The notes under the pieces are model-generated. The model did no database searches. It saw only the letters and a program-made list of their open reading frames with translations, and had not been told where the DNA came from. Positions 3,269 through 31,496 of a stretch of 64,000 nucleotides of DNA are shown piece after piece. The position numbers were made by a program, and so were the translations under genes. Every line of letters starts with the position of its first letter. Position 1 is the first letter of the stretch. Source of the stretch: an uncultured Candidatus Woesearchaeota archaeon (lineage in GTDB: Archaea > Nanobdellota > Nanobdellia > Woesearchaeales > B29-G15); NCBI GenBank assembly GCA_903915225.1, contig CAIWSB010000080.1, positions 21,459 to 85,458 on the forward strand, given 5' to 3'.

Positions 3269-3329
3269 TATTTGGGATAAATGGAAACAATATTTAAATT
3301 AAGCGGATTGACGCAACAAAAAATTTATA

Positions 3330-6360: not shown

Positions 6361-6361
6361 C

Positions 6362-6772: not shown

Positions 6773-6847
6773 TTTAATTACCTCTTAGACGAGATAATTC
6801 TACCTATTTATTAACCTTACGCAAATTTACTACTTAAGAATACTAAT

Positions 6848-7027: not shown

Positions 7028-7038
7028 ACAACATCACC

Positions 7039-9026: not shown

Positions 9027-9081
9027 GTGCTCATTCTTGAACCATTATTTTAAACAATATATTTGATTTAAGGTGATTAGC

Positions 9082-12000
9082 ATGAGAAAAATATTGGTTA
9101 TGTCTTTAGTGATTTTGCTGCTGTTGCCATCCTTGGTTTTGGCTCTAACCCTTACTTCCCCTCAAGAAGGTACATTGATACCCTCCGATTACGGTTGTAA
9201 TGAACAGCCGAGCTGCAGTGAAGCGCTTTCTCAAAGTGGTGGCATTGCAACCCAATATGATTTCGACTCAGACGGCCGTGTCGACCTCAAGGAGGTTCTG
9301 CAGGCCATTGCTGATAAAAGCTTAGGAAAAATTTCCGGATCGCAAGTGTGTGGCATGATAGGGTTGTGGCAGAGTGATTGCATCACTATTCTATGCAAAG
9401 ACTCAGATAACAGCCCCGACTTTTATACGAATCTTATTACTTATCCAATAACATCCGATAGCGAGCCATCACTTTTCCAGAAGGGCTATGCTAAGGGTAT
9501 ATACACACAAGCAGACCAAAACCTAATAATTGGAGAGGGGAACAAGTTATCATCTATTAGCCAAAGCCCTTACCCCTATTCCATTTACTATGACCATTGT
9601 GCAAACGATCAACAGCTGAATGAGGCCTTCTGCACAACTGAAGGCAAACTAGCTTCCCAGGGAGTTTCATGTCCCAACGGATGCGCAAATGGCGCGTGCT
9701 TAAAAGTGTCAACTCCGAAATGCACAAGTGATTCCGAATGCCCCTCATCGCAGAATACATATTGCTCGGGTGGTTCGGTTTGTTATGAATCCCCAATCGG
9801 GAAATGCATAAACCCCGGAACCGATTCAGCTTACTGCGGCCAAGTCTCTGGGCAAGCGGCCTGTAAAATATGCCCCAATGGCTGCTCTAGTGGGGAATGC
9901 AACCCGGCGCCAACATGCAAAGATACAGATGGACTGAATTATTTGACCAAAACCTCTGTGACTTCAAGCCAGGGTAATGTTTGGTGGGATCAGTGCATTC
10001 AAATCACTGGCGGAACTCCAGAGAGTGCATCCTATTGCGCAGGACAAGACTGCTACCTTTACGAGATGCTTTGCAGCCCCGTTAAAAGTCCCGAAATACT
10101 TGAATTAACTAAAACATTTGATGGAGTGTATAGTGCAAAAATTAGATGTGCAGATGGTTGCAACGATGGCACCTGCAAAAAACCTACTGCAACATGCACG
10201 GATTCTGACGGCGGCATTGACTATTATACCAAAGGAAAAATTGAAGCTTCAGGTTGGGGAATTACCTATGATTCCTGCTTTGGAGAAAATGGCGCTAGTA
10301 TGTTGGATGAGTATTACTGCAATAAAGATGGTTCAGTAGGCAAAGTTGATTTTAGCTGCCCCAATGGCTGCAAGGATGGAGCCTGCATAAAACCAGCTGC
10401 GACATGCAAGGATTCGGATCTTGGGGTGGATCCATATACTAAAGGGATATGTAAAGACTCAAGGGGAGTCATCGTTGAAGACGGTTGCCTTAAATCAGAT
10501 GGTTCTGGTCCTTATCCTAAGGGAGAGTATGTTCTTGAATCCTACTGCATGACCCCTGACATGAGGGAATACTGCAAACAATTCAATGGTGCAGAATACT
10601 GCGATAATCTTCCAGATGTGTGCTATTCCTCTCCATTTATCCCCCAGGATAATCTTGCATGGTATTATTTCCCAAGGAATGAGGCATATTTCTGTGAAAA
10701 TGGCTGCTCAAATGGGGCATGCATAAAGGGAACAAACCCAAAATGCACAAGCGATTCTGAATGCACATCCTCCCAAAAGTCATATTGCTCCGGCAATTTG
10801 GTTTGTGTTCAACCCTCAAGCGGAAAGTGCATAAATCCTGGAACTAATTCAGCTTATTGCGGTACATTATCTGGGCAAGAAGCTTGCCAGCTGTGCCCCA
10901 ATGGTTGCTCAAATGGTGCTTGTATAACCTCAACTTCCAGCTGCTCTGACACAGATGGTGGCATAAATCAGTTTGTCAAAGGAACTGTAAAAACCTTCAG
11001 AGGTCCAGACGAAACGGGGCTGATTGGTATAGCCCAAGGGGTTGGTGCTGTTAAAAAAAGTGTAGAATCTAAGGAAGGTTACACTGCAACTTTTACAGAT
11101 GCCTGCTTCAAGGCGGATGATTACTTCACCCTTAATGTGGGAGAAAAAAGAGATATCAAGATATGGCAGGAAAAATCTAGTGTTGAAATTGTGAACGTAA
11201 ATGTCCCAGAAAATAAAGTTACCCTAAAAATTGGGGGAAATATTTTGACCCTGAATGAGAACGAAGTGAGTGGGATGAACCAAATTATGGTTGGCAAAAT
11301 ATTCACTGCCGAAATCCCTTACCCTACGGCGCAAGTGGAGATTTTTATAGGTCCGCATCAGGGTGCAGGGGATTACCTCATGGAATTCTATTGTTCTGGG
11401 GACAACAACGCCGCTGTAGAATATTTCAAATGCGAGAACGGGTGCTCCGATGGAGCCTGTAACCAGGTAAACACAAAGTGCATTTCTGAAGGACAGACAG
11501 GTTCAGGGTTTTCCCCATACTCCTCTAACGAGAAATGCTGTGCGGGCCTAACTAGTGTTGCCTGTGCAACATCAGACGGCGATATGTGCGGCGTAGCCAC
11601 AGACTGCTTTGTCTGCACCAACTGCGGTGACGGTATATGCGGCCTAGGTGAGAATCAATGCAACTGCGCTCAAGACTGTAATAATTGTGTTGGCGAAGGG
11701 GGCAGTATACCGGTAATTCAAAACGGCCCCAAATGCTGCGCGGGTTTGACACCAATTTCACCCACAGTGTCTAGCGGAACAGGAGAGTGCTTGGTTATGA
11801 TTGGAGCACAGGTTTGCACCAAGTGTGGTGATGGAATCTGTGGCGCAGGTGAGAACCAATGCAACTGCGCTGAGGATTGTGCGTATTCCAAATGCTCAGA
11901 CACCGATGGCGGCCAAGATGTTTTCACAGCAGGCAAGGTGATAATTACAAAGAGCACTGGCTCGATTTACACAGTTCCAGACACATGTGTGTCTGAAGCC

Positions 12001-13500
12001 AACATGCATAATATGGGAATTATGGAGGTAAGCTCATTTGTAAAGAAGGTCAACCCTATCACTGCAGTATCATCTCCTACTGTGACAGTAGCCTCTACTC
12101 CAGTTCAATCAACTTCAGCCGGGGCTTCTGGAGGGCAAGTGCCTTCAGTGGCATCTGTTCAAAACACAGCTATACAAGTGGCTGAAGAGATTGCTGAGCA
12201 GCCCCCATCACAGTATACTACTCCACAACAACCCCCATTAATTACACCCCCCTATGGACATAAGACATATGTTTTGGAGCAATACTGTAATGAAAATGGT
12301 GGCTATAATACCTTGGCTTACGAATGCCCATACGGATGTGAGAATGGTGCTTGTATTACATCACCAGCCACCTGCCTTGCTGAAGGAGAAAATGGCAAAT
12401 CCGGTTTTGAACTCACCACCTGCTGCGAAGGCTTAACCAGCGTCCCAAATTCAAAATTTGAAACAGTTGGTGATGCATCCGGTTACACATGCCTCCAGCC
12501 CCAGGACGGGAGCTTTGTCTGCACCAACTGCGGAGATGGCATATGCGGCTTGGGAGAAAACCAATGTAACTGTGCTCAAGACTGTAATAATTGTGTTGGC
12601 GAAGGAGGAAGCATCCCGGTTATTCCAAACGGCCCAAAATGCTGTGCCGGTTTGACACCAATTTCACCCAGTGTGTCTAGTGGAACAGGAGAGTGTGCGA
12701 TTATGGTGGGGGCGCAGGTTTGCACCCAATGCGGTGACGGTATCTGCGGCGCAGGCGAAAACACCTGCAACTGCGCAGAAGACTGCAAGAAAGTGACCAA
12801 GTGCGAAGTCAATGCAGGGTACTGCCAAGCTGAGTACAAATGCACTGACTTTAAATGCGGCCCTGCACCCACATGCAAAGAGGGATACTATGAGTCTGGT
12901 GAGCTTGGCTGTGTGGAAGGATTATGTTGCCTGCCAGAACCACCTGCAACCAAATGCGAAGCCAACGGTGGTTATTGCAATGTTATGCCAGAATGCAAAG
13001 AGGGATATGAGTGCATACAAATGATGCCAGAATGCAAGGGTGGGTATAATCCCTCTAAAGACTCCTTGGGTTGCCCGGGGGAATGCTGCCTACCTGAAGT
13101 ACCAACCAACACCTGCGAGACCAATGGGGGAAAGTGTACTATTCTTGGGGATCTTGTTGAAGATACGTGTGAAATGCACAACCTGAAAACACTCCCCTAT
13201 TCTTGCCAGCAGATTGCAACGAATACACAATGTTGTGCTGAAGCGATTGTGCCACCCACTACAGTTTGTTCTGGCTGCGTCTACAAAGAGGCATGCCTCC
13301 CAATTGGAACCAGAGTGAGTGTGGATAGTGCGGGTCAATTCTGCGATATAAACAAGCAGATTACTGCCCAACTCCCTGAAGATAATTCCTGCATGAACAA
13401 CTATGAATGCAAATCCAACCTCTGCGTGAGTGACAAGTGTATAAGTGGTGGATTCTTTACAAGGATAATGGAATGGTTTAAGAGCCTCTTTGGGGGATAA
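9082..13500 (+). CDS. Giant (1472 aa) secreted modular cysteine-rich surface protein. The track ORF begins at GTG 9073; the likely true start is ATG 9082.
   Basis: Sec signal peptide MRKILVMSLVILLLLPSLVLA. Eight copies of C-[PE]-N-G-C-x-[DN]-G-[AT]-C and about six copies of C-x-D-[ST]-D-G-[GL] (CKDTDGL, CTDSDGG, CKDSDLG, CSDTDGG twice, plus a weaker CKDSDNS). Two ~90-aa near-identical CTNCGDGICGLGENQCNCAQDC...CGDGICGAGENQCNCAEDC repeats, a Pro/Ser/Thr linker, and EGF/granulin-like Cys knots at the C-terminus. Confidence 0.8.
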   Translation: MRKILVMSLVILLLLPSLVLALTLTSPQEGTLIPSDYGCNEQPSCSEALSQSGGIATQYDFDSDGRVDLKEVLQAIADKSLGKISGSQVCGMIGLWQSDCITILCKDSDNSPDFYTNLITYPITSDSEPSLFQKGYAKGIYTQADQNLIIGEGNKLSSISQSPYPYSIYYDHCANDQQLNEAFCTTEGKLASQGVSCPNGCANGACLKVSTPKCTSDSECPSSQNTYCSGGSVCYESPIGKCINPGTDSAYCGQVSGQAACKICPNGCSSGECNPAPTCKDTDGLNYLTKTSVTSSQGNVWWDQCIQITGGTPESASYCAGQDCYLYEMLCSPVKSPEILELTKTFDGVYSAKIRCADGCNDGTCKKPTATCTDSDGGIDYYTKGKIEASGWGITYDSCFGENGASMLDEYYCNKDGSVGKVDFSCPNGCKDGACIKPAATCKDSDLGVDPYTKGICKDSRGVIVEDGCLKSDGSGPYPKGEYVLESYCMTPDMREYCKQFNGAEYCDNLPDVCYSSPFIPQDNLAWYYFPRNEAYFCENGCSNGACIKGTNPKCTSDSECTSSQKSYCSGNLVCVQPSSGKCINPGTNSAYCGTLSGQEACQLCPNGCSNGACITSTSSCSDTDGGINQFVKGTVKTFRGPDETGLIGIAQGVGAVKKSVESKEGYTATFTDACFKADDYFTLNVGEKRDIKIWQEKSSVEIVNVNVPENKVTLKIGGNILTLNENEVSGMNQIMVGKIFTAEIPYPTAQVEIFIGPHQGAGDYLMEFYCSGDNNAAVEYFKCENGCSDGACNQVNTKCISEGQTGSGFSPYSSNEKCCAGLTSVACATSDGDMCGVATDCFVCTNCGDGICGLGENQCNCAQDCNNCVGEGGSIPVIQNGPKCCAGLTPISPTVSSGTGECLVMIGAQVCTKCGDGICGAGENQCNCAEDCAYSKCSDTDGGQDVFTAGKVIITKSTGSIYTVPDTCVSEANMHNMGIMEVSSFVKKVNPITAVSSPTVTVASTPVQSTSAGASGGQVPSVASVQNTAIQVAEEIAEQPPSQYTTPQQPPLITPPYGHKTYVLEQYCNENGGYNTLAYECPYGCENGACITSPATCLAEGENGKSGFELTTCCEGLTSVPNSKFETVGDASGYTCLQPQDGSFVCTNCGDGICGLGENQCNCAQDCNNCVGEGGSIPVIPNGPKCCAGLTPISPSVSSGTGECAIMVGAQVCTQCGDGICGAGENTCNCAEDCKKVTKCEVNAGYCQAEYKCTDFKCGPAPTCKEGYYESGELGCVEGLCCLPEPPATKCEANGGYCNVMPECKEGYECIQMMPECKGGYNPSKDSLGCPGECCLPEVPTNTCETNGGKCTILGDLVEDTCEMHNLKTLPYSCQQIATNTQCCAEAIVPPTTVCSGCVYKEACLPIGTRVSVDSAGQFCDINKQITAQLPEDNSCMNNYECKSNLCVSDKCISGGFFTRIMEWFKSLFGG
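9715..9905 (+). repeat. Intragenic repeat B copy 1 (PKCTSDSEC...CPNGCSSGEC module); copy 2 at 10735-10925, ~75-80% nucleotide identity
   Basis: Direct comparison of ccgaaatgcacaagtgattccgaatgc... with ccaaaatgcacaagcgattctgaatgc... Confidence 0.6.
10735..10925 (+). repeat. Intragenic repeat B copy 2
   Basis: See copy 1. Confidence 0.6.
11611..11880 (+). repeat. Intragenic repeat A copy 1 (~270 bp; encodes CTNCGDGICGLGENQCNCAQDCNNCVGEGGSIPVIQNGPKCCAGLTPISP...CGDGICGAGENQCNCAEDC)
   Basis: Near-identical (~85-90%) to 12517-12785. At the protein level the copies differ at only a few positions. Confidence 0.7.
12517..12785 (+). repeat. Intragenic repeat A copy 2
   Basis: See copy 1. Confidence 0.7.
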
Positions 13501-13530: not shown

Positions 13531-14193
13531 GTGAAGGGTTTAATAGCTGTTTTTGTATTTTTTATAATTCTAATTTCCTTGGCAGAAGGTAAACTTAACC
13601 AAGGGCCCATGAATTCAAGGCAGATTGAAATACCTTGTACTGAATCAGATGATGGTAAGGACTTTTACCTGCGCGGCAGTGTTTGGGGAGTTGATAATTG
13701 GGGAATAAATGGAATTATAAGTGACATATGCCTTGGCAAGGATGAGTTGGTGCCAATGTTTCCCGGGCAAAGAAGAGTGATAGAGACAAGCAGGGGCACT
13801 GCCATGGAGATTAGGCTTCTGGGATTAGATGAGGGGAAAGGGAAGGTATTAGTGAGTCTTGATGGGAAGGAATTCACAGCTGAGCAATGGGATAAGCTGG
13901 CCTTTGCAGGCGGCTATGTTGGAATAAACCAAATTGCTGAAAATTGGGTTTTTTTGACATTTAACCTAACTGCTGCTGGCAACAAATTATTGGAGTATTA
14001 TTGTGAAGACCAAAAAATTGGTTTTGAAATTTATGAGTGCCCAATGGGATGCTCCGATGGGGCCTGCAGGGTGGATGAAAAACAAGAAAGAACAACAAAA
14101 GAGGTTGTTCTATTTCCTCTTGAACATTTTCTCCAGATCAACCCTAGTGAATTTTATGACAGTTGGGCGGCCATGGGCGCAGGCATAGGCTAG
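13531..14193 (+). CDS. Small secreted protein (220 aa) carrying one copy of the same Cys module as the giant protein; GTG start
   Basis: Signal peptide VKGLIAVFVFFIILISLAEG, then CTESDDGKDFYLRG ... YYCEDQKIGFEIYECPMGCSDGACR, which parallels the module boundaries in the giant protein. Needs a GTG start. The 3' end overlaps the mutL 3' end by 84 nt (convergent). Confidence 0.5.
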   Translation: MKGLIAVFVFFIILISLAEGKLNQGPMNSRQIEIPCTESDDGKDFYLRGSVWGVDNWGINGIISDICLGKDELVPMFPGQRRVIETSRGTAMEIRLLGLDEGKGKVLVSLDGKEFTAEQWDKLAFAGGYVGINQIAENWVFLTFNLTAAGNKLLEYYCEDQKIGFEIYECPMGCSDGACRVDEKQERTTKEVVLFPLEHFLQINPSEFYDSWAAMGAGIG

Positions 14194-15792
14194 ATTGCAT
14201 TCGAACAGCTTTTCAAGTAAGGAAGACATCTCTGCCGGGGAAAGCTCCTCATTGGCTTTCACCGAAGCCTTGCAGGCCATTGTATGGATAATCTCTTCCT
14301 TTACCATCCCACTCTTAGTCTTCTTGAGATTCGCGGCGAGTTCATCGAACAGGTCTTTAAGATAATCTTTTGTGACCCCCCCGCCAAGAATAACCGGAAC
14401 CTGCCTCACAATGAATTGATGCTCCCCAAAGCTTTCCACATCAAAACCTAGCTCGCGCAGATGAGCAAGCCCCTCTTTGATAATAGGCACATTGTGTTTT
14501 GGCGGACTCACAAGAATTGGCTGAAGCAGCTGCTGTGGTTTTTGGTTTGAGTCCAGGGTTTTGTTTAACCTTTCAAGATTTATTCGCTCTTCAGCTGCAT
14601 GCTGGTCAACAATTATGAGGCCGTCAGGTACCTCGGCGATGATGAAGCTCTTTGCCACTTGCCCCAGCACCTTAAAGCCCGGCGATGAGTGTTCCCGTGC
14701 GAGCATGGTTTGTTTGCCCATATCAATCTTACCTTCAGGAGCATTCTTCGTAGCATTACTGAGAATACGGCCGAGTACACTCTGCTGCGATTCCGGCTGC
14801 TTCTCAATAAGCACATTATGCTCGAGAGCCTCCTTAACAGCCAGATGAACCTCTGTGAAAACAAGCTCTTCGGAATCAAATTTCACTTCTTGCTTCGTGG
14901 GGTGTACGTTTACATCAATCCTGCCTGGTTCGATTGTGATATTGAGCACAGCCACAGGCTTCTTATCCAAAAACAGCAGGGTCTTATAGGCAGATTCAAG
15001 CGCATCGGTCAGCAGCTTACTCTTAATGTATCTGCGATTCACAAAAAAACTCTCAAAAGCTCGGGTGCTGCGGGCAATGCTCGGAATTCCAATCAATCCA
15101 TCAACTCTGATACTGCCGGAGTGCAACACGGGTACCATATTCTTAGCAACATCCATTCCGTATATGTGGGCCACCTTGCTCCTCAAGTCAACAGTTGCCG
15201 GAGCACTTAGTATCTCCGATTCATTGTTCTTTACAATGAACCCAATTTCTGGGTAAGCCAGGGCATAGTTGGTTACAACATCAACAATGAGCCTAAGCTC
15301 GCCCGTTTCACTTGCCAAGAATTTCCTGCGTGCAGGTGTGTTGTAGAAAAGGTTACGCACCGCAATTGTTGTCCCCTTTGGTGCAGCTACTTCCTCCACA
15401 CGCTTGCCATCACCATCTACCACAACACGCGTTCCAGTACCAGCACCATCGTTTGTTACAATGCTAAGCCTTGAAACAGCAGCAATACTGGCCAAAGCCT
15501 CACCACGAAAGCCCAGATGCCTGATGTTGAATAAGTCGGCCAGTGTTGATATTTTGCTGGTCGTATGCCTCTCCACCGAAAGAAGGGCATCAGCGCGTGA
15601 CATCCCGGAGCCGTTGTCGCTAATAATTATCACATCCTTTCCGCCAGCCTTGAGCTCGATGCGAACCATTGTGGCTCTGGCATCTATTGCATTCTCCACA
15701 CATTCCTTTACCACAGAAACCGGGCGTTCAACTACCTCTCCAGCAGCTATCTTTTCAACAATTTCCCTTTGGAGCCTCTTTATTGTTCCCAT
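14110..15792 (-). CDS. mutL: DNA mismatch repair protein MutL
   Basis: GHKL ATPase N-terminus EVVERPVSVVKECVENAIDA...IISDNGSGM and the C-terminal dimerisation domain with CAHGRPTVIKF. Confidence 0.9.
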   Translation of the reverse strand: MGTIKRLQREIVEKIAAGEVVERPVSVVKECVENAIDARATMVRIELKAGGKDVIIISDNGSGMSRADALLSVERHTTSKISTLADLFNIRHLGFRGEALASIAAVSRLSIVTNDGAGTGTRVVVDGDGKRVEEVAAPKGTTIAVRNLFYNTPARRKFLASETGELRLIVDVVTNYALAYPEIGFIVKNNESEILSAPATVDLRSKVAHIYGMDVAKNMVPVLHSGSIRVDGLIGIPSIARSTRAFESFFVNRRYIKSKLLTDALESAYKTLLFLDKKPVAVLNITIEPGRIDVNVHPTKQEVKFDSEELVFTEVHLAVKEALEHNVLIEKQPESQQSVLGRILSNATKNAPEGKIDMGKQTMLAREHSSPGFKVLGQVAKSFIIAEVPDGLIIVDQHAAEERINLERLNKTLDSNQKPQQLLQPILVSPPKHNVPIIKEGLAHLRELGFDVESFGEHQFIVRQVPVILGGGVTKDYLKDLFDELAANLKKTKSGMVKEEIIHTMACKASVKANEELSPAEMSSLLEKLFECNLAYACAHGRPTVIKFTRVDLEKMFKRK

Positions 15793-18260
15793 TTTTTCAA
15801 ACTAAATTGTTCTGCATGTTTCTTCCCCTGCAGCTTGTCCAGCATCTCATCTTCATCCATGAGTTGTTTCTGGATACCCATAGCCCTATCAACAACCTCT
15901 TGCGGCATTCCTGCGAGCCTGGCCACATGGATTCCGTAGCTCTTATCAGTTCCGCCCTCTTCAATTTTCCTTAGGAAGATGATGTCACCACCCTTCTCCT
16001 TTACACTGATGTTCCAGTTTTTGATATTTGCAAACTCCTCACCCATCTTGTTGAGCACATGATAATGGGTTGCAAAGATTGTCTTAGCCTTAATTTTGTT
16101 GTAAATGTACTCTGCAACTGCCCAAGCTATTGCAACGCCATCAAATGTTGACGTTCCGCGGCCAACCTCATCAAGCATGATAAGCGATTTATCAGTTGCA
16201 TTGTTGAGTATGTTGGCTGTCTCATCCATTTCAACCATAAATGTGCTCTGGCCATGCATGAGGTCATCATAGGCTCCAACTCGGGTGAATATCCTGTCCA
16301 CTATGCCAATCTCAGCCTCCCCGGCAGGCACAAAGCTGCCAATCTGGGCCATGAGTACAATCAAGCAGACCTGGCGCATATAGGTGCTCTTGCCAGCCAT
16401 ATTTGGGCCAGTAAGGATTACCATCTCATTCTTAGTGAGCAAAGTATCGTTCGGAATAAAACCAGGACAAATAAGTTCAACAACCGGATGTCTGCCAGAT
16501 TTAATGCGGATATCTCCGTTGTTGTTTACCAAAGGTTTAACGTATCTATGCTTTTCAGCTGCATGGGCAAGGGAGCAAAGCACATCAAGGACAGCAAGAC
16601 GCCGGGCTATTGCCTGGAGTGGCCTTGCATTACGTTCCATCTCTAAAACAACTTGCCTGAAGAGCTCATACTCAAGTATATTTATCCGCTCTTCGGCCCC
16701 CAATATCTTTGATTCAAGCACCTTTAGCTCTTCGGTAACATAGCGCACCCCCCCAACCAGGGTTTGCTTCTGAATGAAATTGGGTGGCACTCTGCCGATT
16801 TGGGAATTTGAAACCTGGAGGTAATAACCAATAACCTGGTTGAAGCCAACCCTCAGGGTTTTTATGCCTGTTCGGTTTATTTCATCATACTCAATGCGCT
16901 TGAGCACCTCACTGCTGGATTCCTTTATCTCTCTAAGCTCATCCAGCTCTAGGTTAAAGCCTGCACGGATTATCCCCCCCTCAGTTGCCTTTAGTGGTGG
17001 GTTCTCCTGAATGGCCTTTTTTATCCCCCCAGTTAATTCATTAAGGGTCTGCATTGTGGCTAATTTTGTGAGTGTAGAATTGGTTGAATCCTTTAGAAGC
17101 GAGATAAGCTTGGGCAGCTGGTCCAGGGAAGTGCTCACGGCAATCAAATCCTTTGGGTTGATGCTGTTGTATGAGAGCTTGCCAACCATTCGCTCTAGGT
17201 CGCAAACTCCCTTCAAAAGGCTGCGTATCTCTTCCCTCAAGATTGGGTCACGGGCCAGTAGGGCAATTGCATCTTGTCTTCCCTTTATTTTATCCACATC
17301 AATGAGGGGGCGCTGGAGCCATTGCCTAAGCCGCCGTGCACCCATTGGCGTGATAGTATAATCAATCTTGCCCAACAGGGTGTCTTTTCCACTCCGGTCC
17401 ATTATATTCTCAAAAACCTCTAGGTTGCGGAGCGTTGTGCTGTCAACTATCATGAACCAGTTGATGTTTATTGTCCTCATCCTATTAATGTGCCCTAAGG
17501 CCAGCTTCTGGGTCTCTTTAAGGTAGGCAAGAAGCCCCCCTGCAGCAGATATTTGCAATGGTTTGCCCTCGAGTCCGAAACCGCGGAGCGAGTTGGTGCG
17601 GAAATGCTCCAGCAGGGTGCGCGCCGCATCATCATTGTTGAATGAGCTGTCAGGGAATTTTGTCACAAATATCTTCTCCTTTTCGAGCAGCACTAGAAAG
17701 TCCCCGTTCACAGCAAAGCTTTCTGGGATAAGGCATTCTGCAGGTCTGAGTTTTCTTAGCTCAGAAGCCACCCGCTCAAAACCCTGCGCCTCGAAGCAGA
17801 AAAAATCCCCCGTTGTTATGTCCGCTGCAGCTACGCCAAAGCTATCCCCACGCGGAAAGACAGAAGCTATAAAATTATTCTGGCCCTGCTGAAGCATACC
17901 CTCTTCAGTTACTGTGCCTGGAGTGATAATCCTAACAACATCCCTTGAGACAATCCGGCCCTTCACTGTTCTAGGGTCCTCCATCTGCTCAGCAATTGCC
18001 AAACGCAGGCCGCTGCTTATCAGCCTCTGGATATAGGTATCAGCCGCCCTATAAGGAATGCCTGCCAGGGGTGCCTTCTTTTGGCCCTTCCCTCTTGAAG
18101 TGAGTGTAATCCCAAGCACCTTGGAGGCAGTGATGGCATCCTCATAGAACATCTCATAGAAATCCCCCATGCGGAACATCAGGAGGCAGTCTGGGTGCTT
18201 CTGCTTAAAGTGCTTGTACTGCTTCATTGCCGGAGTCAAATCCGGCTCCAAACCCCCCAT
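15780..18260 (-). CDS. mutS: DNA mismatch repair protein MutS (bacterial MutS1 type). The track start 18299 is TTG; the first ATG is at 18260.
   Basis: N-terminal mismatch-binding TPAMKQY...LLMFRMGDFYEMF and Walker A LTGPNMAGKSTYMRQV. Overlaps the mutL start by 13 nt. Confidence 0.9.
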   Translation of the reverse strand: MGGLEPDLTPAMKQYKHFKQKHPDCLLMFRMGDFYEMFYEDAITASKVLGITLTSRGKGQKKAPLAGIPYRAADTYIQRLISSGLRLAIAEQMEDPRTVKGRIVSRDVVRIITPGTVTEEGMLQQGQNNFIASVFPRGDSFGVAAADITTGDFFCFEAQGFERVASELRKLRPAECLIPESFAVNGDFLVLLEKEKIFVTKFPDSSFNNDDAARTLLEHFRTNSLRGFGLEGKPLQISAAGGLLAYLKETQKLALGHINRMRTININWFMIVDSTTLRNLEVFENIMDRSGKDTLLGKIDYTITPMGARRLRQWLQRPLIDVDKIKGRQDAIALLARDPILREEIRSLLKGVCDLERMVGKLSYNSINPKDLIAVSTSLDQLPKLISLLKDSTNSTLTKLATMQTLNELTGGIKKAIQENPPLKATEGGIIRAGFNLELDELREIKESSSEVLKRIEYDEINRTGIKTLRVGFNQVIGYYLQVSNSQIGRVPPNFIQKQTLVGGVRYVTEELKVLESKILGAEERINILEYELFRQVVLEMERNARPLQAIARRLAVLDVLCSLAHAAEKHRYVKPLVNNNGDIRIKSGRHPVVELICPGFIPNDTLLTKNEMVILTGPNMAGKSTYMRQVCLIVLMAQIGSFVPAGEAEIGIVDRIFTRVGAYDDLMHGQSTFMVEMDETANILNNATDKSLIMLDEVGRGTSTFDGVAIAWAVAEYIYNKIKAKTIFATHYHVLNKMGEEFANIKNWNISVKEKGGDIIFLRKIEEGGTDKSYGIHVARLAGMPQEVVDRAMGIQKQLMDEDEMLDKLQGKKHAEQFSLKKWEQ

Positions 18261-18361
18261 GCAAGGGCATAATCCCTTGTGGTTTTTAAAATTTGCCAAG
18301 GTTGGGCCTCGAGAGAGGGGAAGTGCTCCTTAGAAAGATATTTAAATTTCACCCCAGATAA

Positions 18362-18772
18362 ATGATCATGGCAAAAAAGAGAAGATCCAATAAAAAACCC
18401 AAGAATTCCCATTCAGCAATCAACTGGCTCATTATCATTGGGCTTGCGATAATTCTTATCTTAAGACTAAACCAACTCATAAGTTTTTTAGCAAGTATTG
18501 GCAACCCACAGGTTAACCAAAGTATATTACTCTTCATGATACTGCTCGGTTTGGCTTTTATCGCCATAACTGTTGTGTTCCTTATTTTCATAATAAAAAT
18601 GAAAAAATGGGCCTATTGGGGTACAGTTTCACTTGCCGTGCTCCAATTTAGTTTGATGGATTTAACTACTTTCACGCCCCTCTCCATTTTAATGACCTGC
18701 CTTAATGTTATCCTCACATTTGGCCCGTTGTGGATAATTTATTCATCCTATCCACAAAAAGTTAAGCGTTAG
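18362..18772 (+). CDS. Hypothetical membrane protein (136 aa, ~4 TM)
   Basis: Basic N-terminus MIMAKKRRSNKKPKN followed by four hydrophobic segments. Transcribed divergently from mutS. Confidence 0.45.
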   Translation: MIMAKKRRSNKKPKNSHSAINWLIIIGLAIILILRLNQLISFLASIGNPQVNQSILLFMILLGLAFIAITVVFLIFIIKMKKWAYWGTVSLAVLQFSLMDLTTFTPLSILMTCLNVILTFGPLWIIYSSYPQKVKR

Positions 18773-18814
18773 ACAGAAAATTATTTATACCCCAAAGGGG
18801 AATTTCTGAGAAGA

Positions 18815-20596
18815 ATGTGGAAAAGAGGTGCATCGGTTGGTATATTCTTGGTAATTGGAGTAATAATACTCATAACAGCGGGGCTTGTTGTCTGGGTAAT
18901 GAATGGCACATCTCCAAAGCCAACAAATGATGATGTGTCCGGCTATGATGCTAGTGAAGTCCAGAGCTTTGTTAATAGCTGCCTATTTGATTCAACAATT
19001 GCAGGGCTGCGCCTATTGGGACAGCAGGGTGGAGTTATATACCTGAGCCAGGGAGGAGTAACCCCAGATTCTTTCATGCAATCTGAGGCGATACTTTACG
19101 ATGGAAGCTATATACTTAGGGGTATATTGGCCGGGGATATGGACTCTGGGCGCTCCTGTGTCCCAACCCACAAACCACCTATCTATAACCCAGAGAGATG
19201 CCCAAATGTGGCATTCCCCTTCTATAATACAGAATCTCCAGAGGTTTCAATGCAGCAGCTGAGGATATCACCTCCCCCAGCTGATGCCTATGTTCGGCTT
19301 TTAAACAGGGTAAACCTTCGAGACCTCTACCCTCGCACAGAGGAATTTACGAAAATGGGAGCCACATTTGACAATTTGGTTGACAACTCCAGGGACCAGA
19401 GCGTCTATGCGACACTCAAATCCTTCATTGAGCGCAATATCACAAAATGCCTTGACTTCTCAAGCCTTCAAAATGTGGAGGTTACTGCCACGGGGCAGCC
19501 ACAGGTAATCCCTATAATATCTGCTGATTTTGTTACAGTTAGTATGAAATATCCCTTAACAGTAAAACACCAATCAAAAACAATAAGCCTGGAGAAGTTC
19601 TCAGCACCCACACGGGTCAGGTTTAAACCCTTGTTCATTTACGTCAAGTACCTTCTTGAAAATGAAGCCCTGGATTTCAGTTTTGACATCGGTTTGCCCC
19701 AGGACAGCCCAGTGGGTGTAAGCCATATTGTAAATAAGGATGTTGTGGGAAAGGCAGACTTGCTTCAAGTGACTGACAATAACTCTTTCCTGCCAGATAA
19801 AGGGGGAAGTGGTTTTGTGCCTTTCATGTTCTCCACTTTTATTGATAACTCTCAACCGGCCATATCTTATATCCATTATAATAATTTAGATATAGTGCCG
19901 GGGTTGAGGAATAGGCTCACTCATTGTTCGCTCTTAGCAGAACCGCGCAACCCCTGGGAGGAATCAACCACTGATTTGGAAGCTGAAATTGGTACTACCA
20001 TGAATCGGGCAGCACTTACTTGCCTCTGGCAAGCCTATGAGAATTCACTAGGGCCTGGATACAGGAGGGTATATGAGCCAGACGGTGATCTTTTGCCTCC
20101 CCCTGACTTCAAGACTGCACATTGTGAATGGAATAAACCCTGCCAATACAAAGGTGAGAATCTCTTCCTTGATAGGCCAGTAAATTTAACAATTAGGTTT
20201 AATGATAGTCAATATGCGGATACTTTAACAATTCCTCTAAAATTATTTGACCACCCGGTTGAAGATCTGAGGATAGGGAGGGTCCACTATGAAGAGGAGG
20301 TTTTGGCAGGTCTTGACCCTCTTATTGTAGACTTAGAACAGGCACTACAGTTACTACCGCTGGTATACCAAGTAAATGCCACCGATGAGGATATCCGGTG
20401 GGGGACTGAAGTCGATGAGATTGAGTATAGTGTGGATGTACCAACTGTTAAGTCGGAGAAGGAAGAACTATCGGAAATTAAACGCCGCTGGGTTGTCGGG
20501 TTCATGAGAAGCTATTCTGGGCAAGTCGCCAACTTCTCTGTCAGGGACAATTATGGCAAATCCATCAGCAAAACTATTGTTTTAGGGGAAGATTAG
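18815..20596 (+). CDS. Large (593 aa) extracellular protein with a class III (type IV prepilin-like) signal peptide
   Basis: N-terminus MWKRG|[23 protein letters not shown] fits the archaeal prepilin peptidase motif (basic residues, G, small residue, hydrophobic helix). The remainder is soluble with no recognisable domain. Confidence 0.55.
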
Positions 20597-20625
20597 GAAA
20601 AATTTTATATACTAGTATACAACTT

Positions 20626-22497
20626 ATGGGAACTAAAATGGCAAAAAAAGGTTATCTTTTACTAGCTCTGTTGATAGGGATATTCTTGGTGCAATACGCT
20701 GCAGCCCAGAGTGGATGCTGCCTCAACCCAATGACTGAGGGATGTAAATACTCTGCATTGGAAACATGCTGCCCGCCAGACGCCCCAGATAAGTATGTGG
20801 CAGCAGGGGGAGTGGGACCTGCGAATCAAGGGAATTGCACTAGTAATTGGTTCTATCAGAGCGAGCAGGAGGATGCATGCGCCACGATGTCGGCCGATAC
20901 ATTCCCCAATGCAGGTTATTGCATGCAGGGATGTTGCTGCACAAGCCCGCCAGAGTCACAGGAAGGGAATCCTTTCCCAGTAATATTCCTGCAGGAGAAT
21001 AAACTCCTGTGCCTGGGCTTAGACCAGTTTTGGTTTGATTTACAGACAACACCTGTTTGTGATAACACAACCTGCGGGCCAAAATTGTACCCCCCCTTGC
21101 TTAGAAATGCAACTTGTGATATAACTATACCGGGTTATTGTGACCCTTACACCGCGTCAGACCCAGAAGTTATTTGTAAAAATGTTACAAATGTCAATGC
21201 TCAAAACACTCAACGAGGAGTGTGTTGTTACAGCCCCGAGTGTGCAGCAGAAATTGTTGGAGAGACTGTAACAGAAGATCTCTGCGTGGAAACCTTCACT
21301 TCCCCATTCAATGACCCACAAATGGTTTGTGTGAATGGCAATTGGGTCCAATCTGGGCTACCAGTTGGTGCTGGTGAGGTTTGCGCAAGGCAGACAGGCC
21401 AGACAGCAACAAACGAACCAATACTTTTACAGGTTGGTACGTGCACTGATGGCCTGCTTTGTAAACCTGCATTGATTGATGAGATCTTTCACGTATGCTG
21501 TGCAAACAACGAGTGTAGTTACTTTAATACAACCAGCCTAAACGGAACCTGCTATGCTGACCTTTCCAAAATTGAATTGGGAATTGAGACAAGAGCTAAT
21601 TACACCTGTGACAACGGGACATGGACAACTGCTAGTGATGAAATCAAAAAGCGGCATGGAGAGATTTGCGAGAAGTCCCTTGATTGTAATACTGATCTCT
21701 CATGTTTACCCTACAATGTGGAGTCCACTGAAGAAAGCGCAGGTATAAAGCACTGCTGCCTTAAGGATGGCACCGAGTGTGGTTCTCCAGATGGATGCGC
21801 GGGTAAAGATGATACAAAAAAGGTGGGCAACGATACATATGTCTGCATCGGACCGCTTTGGGTAAAGAAGACGGTGGTTGAAACCCCTTGGGAACCACAA
21901 GATAACGGTGGCAGCTCAGGTGGCGGTGGCTGCAGCTCAGCAGGAACAGGTAGTGGTGCAGGTGGCGTTGGCGGGGATAATGTGACCCTAGACACTGATA
22001 ATGATACAATCCTAGATGATAGCGACAACTGCATAAATATATCAAACACAGACCAGAAAGACACAGATAGTGATGGTAAGGGCGATGTGTGTGATGATGA
22101 TATTGACGGAGATGGGGTATTAAACGAGCAGGATAACTGCCCTGAAATCCCAAATGCGGACCAAGCTGACCTCGATAATGATAAAATTGGAGACGTTTGC
22201 GATTCTGATAAAGATGGAGACACGGTTGCAAACGATGTAGACAACTGCCCCCTAGTGATTAACACAGACCAGAAAGATGATGATAATGACGGAATGGGGG
22301 ATGCGTGCGATACTAACGGCAACCAGGAAACCAATTCTTTACTCTTATGGGGCGCCGTGCTAGGTGTGGTAGGAGCAGGCTTAGCTATCGCACTTGGTTG
22401 GATAGCGGCACCCACTTTAGCCATTGGATCTCTCGTTGTTGGAATTGGAACAGTGGTGGGTGTAGTTGTGGGCTGGCTAGTGAGTCTATTCGTCTAA
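20626..22497 (+). CDS. Secreted Cys-rich surface protein with thrombospondin type-3 Ca-binding repeats and a C-terminal TM anchor
   Basis: Signal peptide [25 protein letters not shown]. Cys-rich N-terminal region. Five or six TSP3-like repeats, D-x-D-x-D-G-x-x-D-x-C-D / DNCPxxxNxDQxDxDxDGxGDxCD ([82 protein letters not shown]). C-terminal hydrophobic stretch [25 protein letters not shown]...[10 protein letters not shown]. Confidence 0.7.
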
Positions 22498-22685
22498 ACC
22501 TTTTTTTCCAAGAATTTTTTAATTGAGCGGTCGAAGCTCTTTTCTGATTCCTTATCAAAATAGCATGCGGGTAGCTGGCTCTTAACCAGGTGATAGGCAA
22601 CACACTCGCAGCAAATCCCCTTCCTGGGGCAGCCAGGGTATGAGCAGGAGCAATTGGCAAGGTTCTTTTTCTGGTTACATTCCAT
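22494..22685 (-). CDS. Small cysteine-rich protein (63 aa), C-x-C-x4-C...G-I-C-C-E-C-x-x-Y-H motif
   Basis: [43 protein letters not shown]. Lies 8 nt downstream of pyrG on the same strand. Confidence 0.5.
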
Positions 22686-24289: not shown

Positions 24290-24369
24290 TACTCCTTTTT
24301 GAAAGCACTGTTTAATAAATTTTGCGATTGCCCGCAAAATTATTTAAGCCGTGCAGTTTTAGGGGAGGC

Positions 24370-25863
24370 ATGCTGGACATTGGCGCATGCCTACGTTGGT
24401 ACAAACTCCCGGAAGTACAGAATGCTATTCTTCAGGGTGCTGAGCACCGTGAGGTGGCTGCCCGGTACGGGGATGGGTTTGGCAGGCGCCCAGACACGCT
24501 GGCATATCCGAGAGATGTGCTTGAGTTTGCAAAAAACGGGGCAACATCGTTCCATGTCTCAGAGGAGCATTGGGAAAACCCACAAATACTGTCTGCAAAG
24601 CTTAGCCAGAAACAACTCGATGCCTTGCGCACAGGCTGGGATATGGTGCTGGATATTGACTGCCCAATTTGGAAATTCTCAAAGAGAATAACCCATCAAA
24701 CAGTCCAAATTCTCACTGGATTGGGCATAAAATCGGTATCTGTTAAATTCTCGGGGAATAAGGGATTCCACATAGGGGTGCCGTTTCAGGCATTTCCCCC
24801 TAAGTTTAGGGGTATTCCGCTTCCTTTGCTGTTCCCCGAGGCCCCTAGGCGCATTGCCCAATATATTTCAAACCGGCTTGACAGAACAATTGCCGAGTCT
24901 TTGAGCGAGTCAGAAAAGGCCGAGATTGCCATATTTTTGAACAAAAGCGCGCAGGAGGTTTTTGTGAAAAGGTGCAGTTCCTGCGGCGCAAATCTTGTGA
25001 ATGAGGATATTGCCAATTTCATTTGCCAAACTTGCGGCAAGAGCATTGCAGCGAAAAAGGAAACGCCTTACATGATTTGCCTAAACTGCAAGAAGATAAT
25101 GAACAAGACGCAAATTGCTGCACCCAAAGCATGCCCAAAATGCGGGTCAAAGGCCAAACCCTCAGAAGGGTTCAATCTTTCCGAGCTGCTAAAGGTAGAT
25201 ACAGTGCTTCTAGCGTCAAGACACCTCTTCAGGATGGTTTATTCACTCCATGAGAAGTCTGGGCTTGCCAGCATACCAGTTGAACTAAGCCGAATTGAGG
25301 CTTTTGAGAAAGAGGAGGCAGATACTGCTTGGGTTGTTGTTAGCGACAAACTGGTTTTTTTGGATTCAAGAAAAGTTGTACCCGGAGAGGCAGGCATACT
25401 CTTGATTGAGGCTTATGATGCAACAGCCAAACAGCTCGAAGAGAAGAAACCCCGCAGCCAAAGGGATTTCGAGCTGCCCAAGACCCCTGTTGCAAGCGAG
25501 CTGTTTCCCCCCTGCATCAACATAATTCTTGGGGGGCTTGAGGATGGCAGGAAGAGGGCGATGTTTATTCTGCTTAACTTTTTGTCCAACATGGGCTGGA
25601 GTTATGATGAGATTGAAAAGTTCATGATGGATTGGAACGAGCGAAATAAGCCACCAATGAAAGAGGGCTTACTTGTATCCCACTTGTCCAACTTTAAGAG
25701 GTCAGGTCCGGCCAAACTGCCCCCAAATTGCGATAAGGATGGGTACTATAAATCAATGGGCGTCTGCCAGCCAGATTTGCTTTGCAAACGGATTAAAAAT
25801 CCAGCAAATTACTATCGCGTTAAAGAAGGGAATAAAGTGAAGAGGAGTAGAAAAAATGAATAA
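24370..25863 (+). CDS. priS: Archaeo-eukaryotic primase small subunit (PriS-like) with two extra Zn-ribbon insertions. The track start 24322 is upstream; ATG 24370 has a GGGGAGG SD.
   Basis: AEP motif I MVLDIDCP (DxD) and motif II FSGNKGFHIGVP (SGxxGxH). N-terminal REVAARYGDGFGRRPD is PriS-like. CSSCGANL...CQTCGK and CLNCKK...CPKCGSK Zn ribbons. Confidence 0.6.
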   Translation: MLDIGACLRWYKLPEVQNAILQGAEHREVAARYGDGFGRRPDTLAYPRDVLEFAKNGATSFHVSEEHWENPQILSAKLSQKQLDALRTGWDMVLDIDCPIWKFSKRITHQTVQILTGLGIKSVSVKFSGNKGFHIGVPFQAFPPKFRGIPLPLLFPEAPRRIAQYISNRLDRTIAESLSESEKAEIAIFLNKSAQEVFVKRCSSCGANLVNEDIANFICQTCGKSIAAKKETPYMICLNCKKIMNKTQIAAPKACPKCGSKAKPSEGFNLSELLKVDTVLLASRHLFRMVYSLHEKSGLASIPVELSRIEAFEKEEADTAWVVVSDKLVFLDSRKVVPGEAGILLIEAYDATAKQLEEKKPRSQRDFELPKTPVASELFPPCINIILGGLEDGRKRAMFILLNFLSNMGWSYDEIEKFMMDWNERNKPPMKEGLLVSHLSNFKRSGPAKLPPNCDKDGYYKSMGVCQPDLLCKRIKNPANYYRVKEGNKVKRSRKNE

Positions 25864-30007: not shown

Positions 30008-31495
30008 TTATTGTGTAAGCATCATTTCGCGTTCACTAACCCGTAACTTCTGGAATCTTTGATAGTCAGACATATCAAAAGGGTACTGGCCCATTGTGCA
30101 ACCCAAGCAGGCTGTTTTTGGGCAAAGATTAACTGCTTCCAAGACACTTTCTATGGGCAAATAATTAAGTGTTGTTGCACTAATTGTTTTTCTGGCTTCC
30201 TCTATTGCCTCTGGCGAGTTCTCTTTTAACAGGAGCTCATCATACTCTGCAATATCAATCCCGCCGGGGCATATCCCAATAAATGGTGGGTAAGTCACAA
30301 ACATATGAACCTCTTTTGCACCAAGTGAGTAAAGCCTTGCTACAATTGCCCTTGAGGTATCGCCACGGACAATGCTGTCATCCACTACACCAACCCTCTT
30401 GCCTTTTATGTGCGATTTAATGAAGAGGAATTTTCCATCAATTGATTTTCCCCGTGCGCCTTCCTCTTTCTGGAAAGCCCTAACTGGGGAATGTGATGGG
30501 CGAGCAACAATTCCCCCATACTCCTTGTCCCAAGTATTGGCAAGGGCAATTGAGGCAGGGATGGGGGATTTTGGGATAGGGGTAATTACGTCAACCCTAT
30601 CTTTCATATGGGAATAGACCTTACTAATCTCAAAACCCAGCTTTGTGCGGGCATCGTAAACCTGCTCGCCCCGCAAATTTGAATCCACCTGAGCAAAGTA
30701 AACAGATTCGAAGGGGCATGACTTCTCACCCAGGTTTAGCAGGGTGCTGCTGTGAAGATTTAGATTCAAATCAATAAAGATTACCTCCCCGGGCTTTAGT
30801 TCCCTCATCTCATGAAATCCCCTGAGATAATGGAAAGCGGTCGTCTCTGAAGCAAAGGCATACTCCACCTTGCCTTCCGAAGTGCGTTTTGCAAGGCCCA
30901 ACGGACGTATACCGTGCGGGTCCTTGAATGCCAGCAACCCCTTGCCTGCAATTATGGCAACAGCAGAATATGCCCCAATAACCTTGATGCCACCTTGGGC
31001 CCCGTAGGTCATAGCCATTGCAGGGATTATCGTTTTTTCAAAATATTCCTTGCCAGAATGCCCATTGTTGCATGATTTTATATTCTCTGCAAAAGCAAGC
31101 ATCAGCGCCTCCACATCGCACCCCGTGAGGAAAGAGTATGTGCCATCCAGCTGTTCGCGTATAGATAGGTAATTGGCAATCTGGCCATTGTGGGCCATCG
31201 CAATCCCTGGGTTTTGGATAAGCAAGGGTTGGGCATCATTCTCTAGGTTGTTACCTATTGTGGCATAGCGGTTATGGCCTATCGCCAATGTGTAAGGCAA
31301 TTCCCCCATTCCCTTACCTCTGAAAACTTCTGATGATGAGCCCGCACCCCGTATTGGCTGCCCAAACTTGTTATTCTTTGTGTCAAACCCAATTATGCCT
31401 GTTGAGTCCCGGCCACGGTGCTCCAGGGCAACCAGGGCAGCCTCCAAATCGCCACAAACTGGTTGATTGCTAATTATCCCAACAATTCCGCACAT
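30008..31495 (-). CDS. purF: Amidophosphoribosyltransferase
   Basis: Ntn nucleophile MCGIVGI, GATase type II domain, and C-terminal PRTase domain VGVVDDSIVRGDTS. Confidence 0.9.
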   Translation of the reverse strand: MCGIVGIISNQPVCGDLEAALVALEHRGRDSTGIIGFDTKNNKFGQPIRGAGSSSEVFRGKGMGELPYTLAIGHNRYATIGNNLENDAQPLLIQNPGIAMAHNGQIANYLSIREQLDGTYSFLTGCDVEALMLAFAENIKSCNNGHSGKEYFEKTIIPAMAMTYGAQGGIKVIGAYSAVAIIAGKGLLAFKDPHGIRPLGLAKRTSEGKVEYAFASETTAFHYLRGFHEMRELKPGEVIFIDLNLNLHSSTLLNLGEKSCPFESVYFAQVDSNLRGEQVYDARTKLGFEISKVYSHMKDRVDVITPIPKSPIPASIALANTWDKEYGGIVARPSHSPVRAFQKEEGARGKSIDGKFLFIKSHIKGKRVGVVDDSIVRGDTSRAIVARLYSLGAKEVHMFVTYPPFIGICPGGIDIAEYDELLLKENSPEAIEEARKTISATTLNYLPIESVLEAVNLCPKTACLGCTMGQYPFDMSDYQRFQKLRVSEREMMLTQ

Positions 31496-31496
31496 T

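Follow-up and report, generated by a model that had tools for sequence, protein, structure and literature searches.

Class III signal sequences, which in archaea are found on pilins, minor pilins, adhesin-like proteins, and binding proteins (bioRxiv 10.64898/2026.04.22.720090; PMC4858521), are already known on large surface proteins. Type IV filament (TFF) systems occur in DPANN archaea (bioRxiv 10.64898/2026.04.22.720090), and TFF system 1, to which the Epd pilus of Methanococcus maripaludis belongs, has been reported in some of them (bioRxiv 10.64898/2026.04.22.720090; PMC4858521). The minor pilins and class III signal-bearing accessory proteins of that pilus are substrates of the peptidase EppA, and the Methanococcus EppA substrates share a QxSxEF pattern (PMC4858521; bioRxiv 10.64898/2026.04.22.720090). 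In bacteria, the modular pilin PilB of Streptococcus sanguinis joins a pilin-type N terminus and a canonical pilin domain to a large grafted extracellular adhesion module (PMC8179133), and the minor-pilin tip of type IV pili (FimU–PilVWX) carries the large adhesin PilY1. Here, we compare these systems with a gene of an uncultured Candidatus Woesearchaeota archaeon, located at positions 18815 to 20596 on the plus strand of a 64,000-nt stretch of contig CAIWSB010000080.1 (hereafter, the window). The Woesearchaeota rank with the most abundant DPANN archaea and also with the least understood, and we know of no protein characterized for their presumed attachment to hosts. A preliminary description, made from the same DNA, had proposed that the gene encodes a class III signal-bearing, pilin-like surface protein, an idea that our analysis partly supports. 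We estimate, at a probability of roughly 55%, that the protein is a bulky minor-pilin-like subunit or adaptor of a Woesearchaeota-wide, TFF-related surface family, and that it docks the Cys-rich product of the adjacent gene. What is new is the very large, unannotated, Woesearchaeota-wide family itself, which has a fold and a conserved pilin-like operon of its own and is paired with an obligate Cys-rich partner.

The gene (18815..20596, plus strand) comprises an ATG start, 593 codons, and a stop codon, as given by the mechanical ORF (open reading frame) list, its translation, and the homologues. Its product begins M1-W-K-R-G5↓A6-S-V-G-I-F, in which the arrow marks the predicted cleavage site; the positions −3, −2, −1, and +1 are thus Lys, Arg, Gly, and Ala. 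The predicted class III leader, M-W-K-R-G, with a putative cut after Gly5, is encoded by 18815..18829 and was assigned from the translation, the homologues, and the family logo described below. Consistent with such a signal, the protein has Arg at −2, Gly at −1, and at least 20 uncharged hydrophobic residues from the predicted cleavage site. Residues 5 to 29 (18827..18901) are the sole hydrophobic segment of the protein, uninterrupted and uncharged, and are predicted to form a membrane anchor or a pilin-type assembly helix; the structure model places a helix at residues 5 to 31, with predicted local distance difference test (pLDDT) values of 88 to 95 for residues 11 to 30. A Sec-type signal peptide or lipoprotein signal was considered and rejected. 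The hydrophobic run starts at residue 5 and is 25 residues long, and the sequence directly after it, NGTSPKP, has neither an AxA site nor a lipobox. The remainder of the protein contains eight Cys residues and seven N-x-S/T (N-glycosylation) sequons, a composition that fits an extracellular body, and all eight Cys are invariant across the six closest homologues. A six-frame scan of the window for [KR][GAS] followed by a hydrophobic N terminus turned up no other genuine ORF of this type; its further matches were to the Sec-type signal of a neighboring gene and to short ORFs that are internal or antisense. The preliminary description had pointed to the basic-Gly-[Ala/Ser] context and the hydrophobic helix of this 593-aa ORF. 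The translation is exact on this point. Nor is the motif an accident of a single sequence: the five closest homologues with a complete N terminus retain it, and it stands out in a logo of 136 relatives.

A word-indexed search returned six proteins only; their alignment was then used for an exhaustive profile search, which yielded 5128 cluster representatives at E ≤ 1e-3 and 2038 at E ≤ 1e-10. These representatives match profile positions ∼1 to 113 and ∼190 to 355, so that the shared part corresponds to the first ∼355 residues of the window protein. Most members are ∼340 to 480 aa long and a few reach 1000 to 1673 aa, whereas full-length relatives resembling the window protein (550–612 aa) number only ∼14. 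None of the members contains a Pfam domain, and all that are named are annotated as "hypothetical protein"; all relatives with an informative name derive from metagenome-assembled genomes (MAGs) of Woesearchaeota or Nanoarchaeota, two evidently misbinned records excepted. The shared part carries the motifs C-L, GLxLLGxQGGxIYxSQGG, PxYPWxxFP, SIxxQLExYxxNNxxxCxDF, YPLxI, VRLxxxYxF, DDxIxxxDxxS, and PYxFxFARxNRxPAL, and is followed by a short "DPDED ... VxDGxxxDxQ" domain. We refer to proteins with this N-terminal module (N-module) and the DPDxD immunoglobulin (Ig)-like domain as the Woesearchaeota QGG class-III family, a name coined in this analysis. The window protein aligns over the whole N-module (residues 42–355; 18938..19879), as established by profile search, alignment columns, and model, and contains C56-L, GLxLLGxQGGxIYxSQGG, NITKC212LDF, and the equivalent of ARxNRxPAL. 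Near-invariant positions in its alignment are C56, G69, Q71, G73, G81, P130, C212, F262, D321, N345, P348, D421, and D423. Some members (P0069, P0104, and P0151) have long Cys-rich C-terminal extensions fused directly to them. An origin of the family in bacteria of the Candidate Phyla Radiation was ruled out by its gene neighbors, which include TBP, MCM, PolD, and RNase P p30. In the literature we searched, neither the QGG family nor any Woesearchaeota pilin is described.

No other motif of the family is as well conserved as the N-terminal signal; the globular part, by contrast, has only ∼15 near-invariant columns. To derive the logo, 157 sequences were examined and the 136 with an intact N terminus and Gln at +1 were tallied; members lacking this Gln, including the clade of the window protein, fall outside this tally. 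Within this set, +1 is Gln in 136/136, and Lys or Arg occupies −3 in 80% of sequences and −2 in 91% (124/136). Position −1 is Ala, Ser, or Gly in 133 of the 136 (98%; 51, 49, and 33, respectively), +2 is Ile, Val, or Leu, +3 is Thr or Ser in 130 (96%), and +5 is Phe in 70%. The signal thus reads (K/R)(K/R)-(A/S/G)↓Q-(I/V/L)-(T/S)-x-F, followed by ∼20 hydrophobic residues. In the window protein and its nearest clade (P0002, P0010, P0011, and the homologue at locus L008), +1 is Ala rather than Gln (KRG↓A, KKG↓A, QRG↓A), and archaellins have the same arrangement. Judged by its sequence, the family N terminus is built like a class III (prepilin-type) signal.

Like the Epd pilus proteins, the wider QGG family has a short basic leader that ends in a small residue (−1) and is followed by Gln at +1 and Ser or Thr at +3. 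It differs from them in lacking any sequence match, PF04021 included, in having Phe or Ile rather than Glu at +5, and, in the window protein, in the Ala at +1. The family pattern, Q-[IVL]-[TS]-x-F, is similar to the QxSxEF pattern of EppA substrates but does not have its Glu. It does not follow the pattern of bacterial type IV pilins and pseudopilins (Gly at −1, Phe or Met at +1, Glu at +5): the window protein has Ala at +1 and Ile at +5, and the family Gln at +1 and Phe at +5. The Epd system also offers no counterpart to the 300-aa N-module or to the partner gene described below.

The genes around the relatives bear most directly on function. On a 311-kb Woesearchaeota contig (L056), RNase P p30 is followed by a family gene of 395 aa and, with a 4-nt overlap, by a partner gene of 1699 aa; then come genes of 157, 333, 158, and 182 aa, a tandem set of 90, 96, and 87 aa that begin KKA↓QSISINTIIVAAIALAVLVVLF, and a gene of at least 381 aa (381+). 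Of the ten genes, only the partner lacks a [KR][GAS]↓[Q/F/I] start with a hydrophobic stretch behind it; the other nine have it. This layout recurs at L001/L011, L005, L019, L025, L026, L034, and L038, and by the sequences of its genes it has the appearance of a pilin/minor-pilin cluster. The family-type signal is thereby found on at least eight unrelated neighboring proteins of 87 to >380 aa. Such clusters of differently sized class III proteins together with adhesin-like proteins are likewise a feature of the Epd genes. Unlike the Epd genes, the Woesearchaeota clusters have no linked ATPase, platform, or EppA gene.

The tandem ∼87 to 96-aa genes lie at L056 19477–20389, L019 19386–19989, L034 17117–17711, L001 11725–11985, and L005 18848–19111. 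Their products start K[AGS]↓Q[SG][IL][ST][IL]NTIIVAAIALAVLVVLF, and at the C terminus they have a small knob rich in Cys (e.g., "...CCCVPK"). From these sequence features we regard them as candidate major pilins of Woesearchaeota; no Pfam pilin model recognizes them. A third recurrent gene family, of ∼250 to 310 aa with the motif "...C.NG.W.SRT...", often stands directly upstream of the family gene (examples are L003 3088–4023, L016 220–1110, L042 129–899, and L049 30–746) and is absent from the window.

A candidate processing enzyme is encoded in the same lineage. At locus L035, a gene on the minus strand (6106–7248) scores 27.5 bits against Peptidase_A24 (cutoff, 26.5) and 26.3 bits against Arc_PepC (cutoff, 23.4), and lies 2.8 kb upstream of the family gene; it is the only such locus among those compared. 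The peptidase has 189 homologues; of those that are named, nearly all come from Woesearchaeota or Nanoarchaeota MAGs, and one is annotated as "prepilin peptidase". Because the L035 gene passes both Pfam thresholds and has homologues in these MAGs, sequence evidence indicates that the Woesearchaeota lineage has an A24 prepilin peptidase. This enzyme, the only peptidase found, is a shorter, FlaK/PibD-like form with Arc_PepC, and differs in this respect from the Epd system with its EppA. A 311-aa homologue of the peptidase (P0237) was suspected to lie beside a family gene, but tblastn showed otherwise. Near the A24 gene of L035, a Hint/intein-like ORF (3217–4020, minus strand) is located between two radical-SAM genes.

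The most informative feature of the locus, unnoticed in the preliminary description, is the gene directly downstream (20626..22497, plus strand). It encodes a 623-aa Sec-signal protein with 45 Cys, identified by Pfam, by signal and hydrophobicity analysis, and by orthologous partners at L008 and L009. Comparison of 33 partner proteins delimits a Cys-rich module, GCCLNP...CCPP...GCCC, at residues ∼30 to 140 (20713..21045). It is followed by thrombospondin type 3 (TSP3; Ca-binding) repeats at 21988..22320 (Pfam TSP_3, E = 1.2e-26; partial NCBIfam matches). In a hydrophobicity scan, residues 571 to 595 and 597 to 623 (22336..22494) form a hydrophobic C terminus, which is a probable membrane anchor. 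The proposal that the family gene is encoded next to other surface proteins is borne out by this Sec-signal, 45-Cys, TSP_3-repeat protein with its hydrophobic C terminus.

An ORF of this type, which we call GCC after its motif, lies directly downstream of the family gene in ∼38 of the 44 loci with enough downstream DNA, the window included, and almost none occur elsewhere in the 588 kb examined; stop and start codons frequently overlap by 4 nt. The mature N terminus of the partners consists of an ∼110-aa module, GCCxNP...C...CCP...C.NFFF...C.GCCCS...C (with a GCCC[DN] variant). The remainder is variable, from ∼600 to >2400 aa, with Big, TSP3, and other repeats, and often ends in a C-terminal transmembrane segment with a Lys-rich tail behind it. 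What these otherwise very variable proteins have in common is the GCC module alone, and by its sequence this module marks them as another large protein family without annotation. Many GCC proteins carry a conserved EDVFxKLKEIAKE in the Lys-rich tail; the window copy instead ends in its two hydrophobic stretches and is tailless.

The pairing invites comparison with bacterial tip complexes. In the minor-pilin/PilY1 tip and the GspK-I-J tip of type II secretion pseudopili, a set of pilin-like subunits of low abundance, one of them bulky, is encoded with a large Sec-dependent, Ca-binding, non-pilin adhesin, the role proposed being priming or display at the tip; by analogy the QGG protein and its GCC partner might form a similar assembly. 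Pfam, NCBIfam, and Foldseek searches show no homology to PilY1 or GspK, and the GCC partner is often C-terminally membrane-anchored. The likeness to S. sanguinis PilB lies in a pilin-type N terminus combined with a large extracellular adhesion module. PilB, however, is bacterial and has its canonical pilin domain between helix and graft, whereas the QGG protein has no recognizable pilin domain, and in QGG loci the variable adhesive part resides mostly on the separate partner protein.

Pfam, NCBIfam, and PDB sequence searches with the 593-aa protein returned no match, and profile searches of the PDB with two family alignments found nothing. The preliminary description had stated that the protein has no recognizable domain beyond its N terminus. 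That holds for these databases, but the body proves to be a conserved family module together with Ig-like domains. An AlphaFold2 model of the full protein, built with a 131-sequence alignment, has a pLDDT of 90.5 and a predicted template modeling (pTM) score of 0.83. In this model, helix 5 to 31 is joined by a linker at residues 31 to 40 (mean pLDDT, 53) to helix 42 to 70, which packs into an α/β module. The module, residues 42 to 355, is predicted to consist of repeated units of a helix packed on an antiparallel sheet, and modeled alone it has a pLDDT of 85 and a pTM of 0.86. A loop-rich insertion at residues ∼106 to 190 (19130..19384; pLDDT, 49–83; profile gaps at ∼113–190) is specific to the long subfamily, has no counterpart in most ∼400-aa relatives, and contains the invariant C115 and C129. 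In the C-terminal region (residues 356–593; 19880..20593), as delimited by the model and Foldseek, a helical/loop segment precedes two predicted β-sandwich domains of the Ig/cadherin/PKD-like type at residues ∼417 to 482 and ∼483 to 593, the second being an addition of the long subfamily. The first bears the family "DPDxD ... D" motif, with near-invariant D421, D423, D464, and D469. Foldseek comparison of the full model with the PDB returned only generic multi-Ig/cadherin-type adhesion molecules, with template modeling (TM) scores below 0.2. Matches of the N-module to NTF2/VirB8-like folds had a probability of 0.2 or less and were discarded as noise. The model predicts Ig-like, adhesion-type domains and gives no match to a pilin fold; the body appears to be a family-specific fold plus Ig-like domains, without a recognizable pilin domain.

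These features also speak to whether the N-module could have an enzymatic role toward its partner or the envelope, for example by modifying glycans or disulfides. It would then not be a docking module, and the gene pairing would reflect an enzyme and its substrate. The conserved polar motifs (QGG...SQGG, ARxNRxPAL, and DPDED) could form a catalytic or metal site, and the N-module fold has no PDB match. Against this, no similarity to enzyme families was detected in Pfam, NCBIfam, or the PDB, the Ig-like domain that bears the DPDxD motif is of the type usual in Ca-binding adhesion modules, and the pilin-like genes make the operon a structural one; the genes for glycosyltransferases and other enzymes present at the loci are not conserved parts of the cluster. 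We consider an enzymatic role very improbable.

For the favored reading, a bulky minor-pilin-like subunit or adaptor, we propose the following sequence of events. The protein would insert N-in/C-out through its sole hydrophobic segment, a topology consistent with the single stretch preceded by basic residues, the eight invariant Cys, and the seven sequons. An archaeal A24 prepilin peptidase would then cut the five-residue leader after Gly5; we infer this step because the motif is near-invariant in the family, the same motif is present on unrelated neighbors, and A24 peptidases exist in the lineage. The retained helix may serve as an assembly module by which the protein comes to lie at one end, tip or base, of a thin filament made of ∼90-aa pilin-like proteins, or may hold it as a membrane-tethered stalk; because the body has ∼560 residues, the end of a filament would be the most plausible position. 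The α/β N-module would dock the GCC module of the neighboring protein, here the 623-aa TSP3-repeat protein, as suggested by the strict gene adjacency, the frequent 4-nt overlap, and the conservation of the GCC module alone among variable partners. The outcome could be an adhesion complex analogous to the bacterial minor-pilin/PilY1 tip complex.

Several observations weigh against this reading, and some of them bear on two further explanations. Within the window there is no A24 prepilin peptidase and no TFF ATPase or platform protein, and the 10 kb around each family gene are free of TFF ATPase genes in at least 12 long loci. Among the Pfam-annotated neighbors of family genes, no T2SSE/FlaI-like ATPase or platform protein was found, and a Walker-A scan of all ORFs of at least 250 aa in 57 sequences (the window and 56 loci) matched MCM and HerA-like ATPases only. 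The window copy has no second class III gene within the 64 kb, by either six-frame scan or tblastn, and a tblastn search of the window with all operon proteins and the A24 peptidase gave no match except to TSP3 repeats. In the model, the low-confidence linker (Pro/Ser/Thr/Asp-rich; residues 30–41; 18902..18937) parts the N-terminal helix from the body, unlike the continuous α1 helix of pilins. A search for Rosetta-stone proteins found no fusion of the family module to the GCC module, barring one dubious motif in P0151, and the C-terminal transmembrane segment and Lys-rich tail would put the GCC module in a membrane-distal position in many partners, which makes the docking geometry less obvious. 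Thus, the pilin-like character proposed in the preliminary description finds support in the family motif, the pilin-like operons, and the A24 peptidase of the lineage, and is called into question by the missing ATPase within 10 kb and by the linker between helix and body.

The linker and the absence of ATPase linkage keep alive the alternative that the protein is processed as a class III substrate but stays tethered to the membrane, as a surface protein or short pseudopilus-like stalk of the sort proposed for the binding proteins of the Sulfolobus bindosome; there it would hold or organize the GCC protein near the envelope, for instance within the cell coat. A flexible Pro/Ser/Thr-rich connection between transmembrane helix and body, as modeled, would suit such a stalk, as would the lack of a linked ATPase or platform gene at every family locus examined and the separation of the window copy from all pilin-like genes. 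Class III signals are also documented on non-pilin archaeal surface proteins (bioRxiv 10.64898/2026.04.22.720090). However, most long loci have the family gene at the head of an operon that also contains three tandem ∼90-aa pilin-like genes and several genes of minor-pilin size, which speaks for a genuine filament. The resemblance to Sulfolobus-type bindosome proteins is limited as well. Neither Pfam nor NCBIfam shows a substrate-binding domain in the window protein, and no ABC transporter gene is nearby, the neighbors being MutS/MutL, the GCC gene, and CTP synthase; the family, moreover, sits in pilin-like operons. We regard a tethered protein as rather unlikely.

A further group of adverse results concerns the signal and the fold. 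The models Class_IIIsignal (PF04021), Pilin_N (PF07790), and Arch_flagellin (PF01917) did not match the window protein, ten relatives, or ten small neighbors, even at E ≤ 1. Characterized prepilin peptidase substrates do not typically have Ser at −1, as many family members do, or lack Glu at +5. The N-module gave nothing at E ≤ 1e-3 in a Foldseek search of the PDB (best E = 0.03), and no match to a pilin or minor pilin. Taken with the lack of a peptidase gene in the window, these points would agree with an uncleaved type II signal anchor, in which K-K-[ASG]-Q serves topology or another interaction and the protein acts as an assembly, folding, or anchoring factor for its Cys-rich partner. Yet the Gln, the small residue before it, and the Lys or Arg two residues before it make up a motif better conserved than any part of the globular module; the same motif recurs on at least eight unrelated neighbors, and an A24 peptidase adjoins one member and is common in the lineage. 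A simple anchor needs none of these, and we judge this explanation improbable.

The window copy differs from the operon-borne relatives in its surroundings. The order RadC-MutL-MutS, family gene, GCC-TSP3 gene, CTP synthase, primase, and AlaX is kept at L008 (48% identity) and L009 (41%), which belong to two other MAGs. The bacterial-type MutL and MutS genes lie directly upstream of the family gene and diverge from it (window 14110–18299, minus strand; L008 5756–9918; L009 625–4784), and the MAG that bears L008 also carries an operon-type paralogue, L010. Because the MutL-MutS synteny is shared with L008 and L009 and an operon-type copy exists in the L008 MAG, gene order and sequence indicate that the window gene is a relocated, two-gene paralogue of the operon-borne version. 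It consists of the two-gene core only, beside mutS/mutL, and has Ala at +1 and one extra Ig-like domain. The neighbors fit an archaeal genome: besides MutS/MutL, CTP synthase, a fused primase, and AlaX, they include a purine cluster, a ribosomal-protein operon with SecY, and an archaeal YidC/EMC3-like gene.

A broader picture can be offered tentatively, as a possibility we would not favor at present: the QGG protein and its GCC partner may form a hitherto undescribed two-component adhesion unit that caps a thin filament specific to Woesearchaeota, in which ∼90-aa Cys-knob pilins are assembled by machinery encoded elsewhere. This unit would be the main device with which these archaea recognize and hold their hosts, the partner body (600 to >2400 aa) would set host specificity, and the MutS-linked dyad of the window would be a second, filament-independent copy. 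For the attachment apparatus of Woesearchaeota, the QGG family and the GCC partner with its variable adhesin-like body are concrete candidates. QGG proteins escape annotation and those pilin-finding pipelines that rely on known models, as they belong to no current domain-database family and their ∼300-aa module has no relative in the PDB.

Expression signals were read from the sequence. A TATA-box-like ttatttata (18781..18789, plus strand) ∼30 nt 5′ of the family-gene ATG is probably an archaeal promoter that gives a leaderless or near-leaderless mRNA. A second TATA-like element, ttttatata (20603..20611, plus strand), in the 29-nt spacer before the GCC gene, would put a start site just before the second ATG of that gene (20638). 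Right after its stop codon, T-runs (T7 and T6; 22501..22520, plus strand) resemble archaeal terminators, a function likewise suggested by sequence. Between mutS and the family gene, a 136-aa ORF (18362–18772, plus strand) with about four hydrophobic segments and a Lys/Arg-rich N terminus has its own TATA-like atatttaaa at ∼18340; it has no family match and no homologue in the loci compared.

Elsewhere in the window, ORFs of 1475 aa (9073–13500, plus strand) and 220 aa (13531–14193, plus strand) encode Sec-signal proteins without a Pfam or NCBIfam family that are weakly similar to an ORF of L006. A HerA/DUF87-type ATPase with a weak Zot match (3330–4670, plus strand), which is not a TFF ATPase, is kept in the syntenic MAG (L008 251–1696). 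Two adjacent paralogues of ∼140 aa (5932–6360 and 6362–6772, minus strand) start M-x-LE-[KQ]-[LY]-LPD-x-KYV and have no family match. A 255-aa prolipoprotein diacylglyceryl transferase (2501–3268, minus strand; Pfam LGT, E = 5e-82) is a bacterial-type enzyme in an otherwise archaeal window. Downstream of the dyad, a 513-aa ORF (24322–25863, plus strand) has weak matches to models of the primase small subunit/LigD prim-pol, the primase large subunit, and a zinc ribbon, and is apparently, from these matches, a fused PriS-PriL primase.

A near-complete cluster for de novo purine biosynthesis extends over 30008–39552 (minus strand) and 41902–44057 (plus strand). It comprises genes for an amidotransferase, GART, GARS, a SAICAR synthetase–AIR carboxylase fusion, parts of FGAM synthase, AIR synthase, and two DUF1246/DUF1297 ATP-grasp proteins; to our knowledge, DPANN-type genomes are usually thought to be without this pathway. 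ARAGORN identified no tRNA gene in the 64-kb window. Over the ribosomal-protein operon, at 44 to 56 kb of the window, the AT skew is strongly positive (0.15–0.29).

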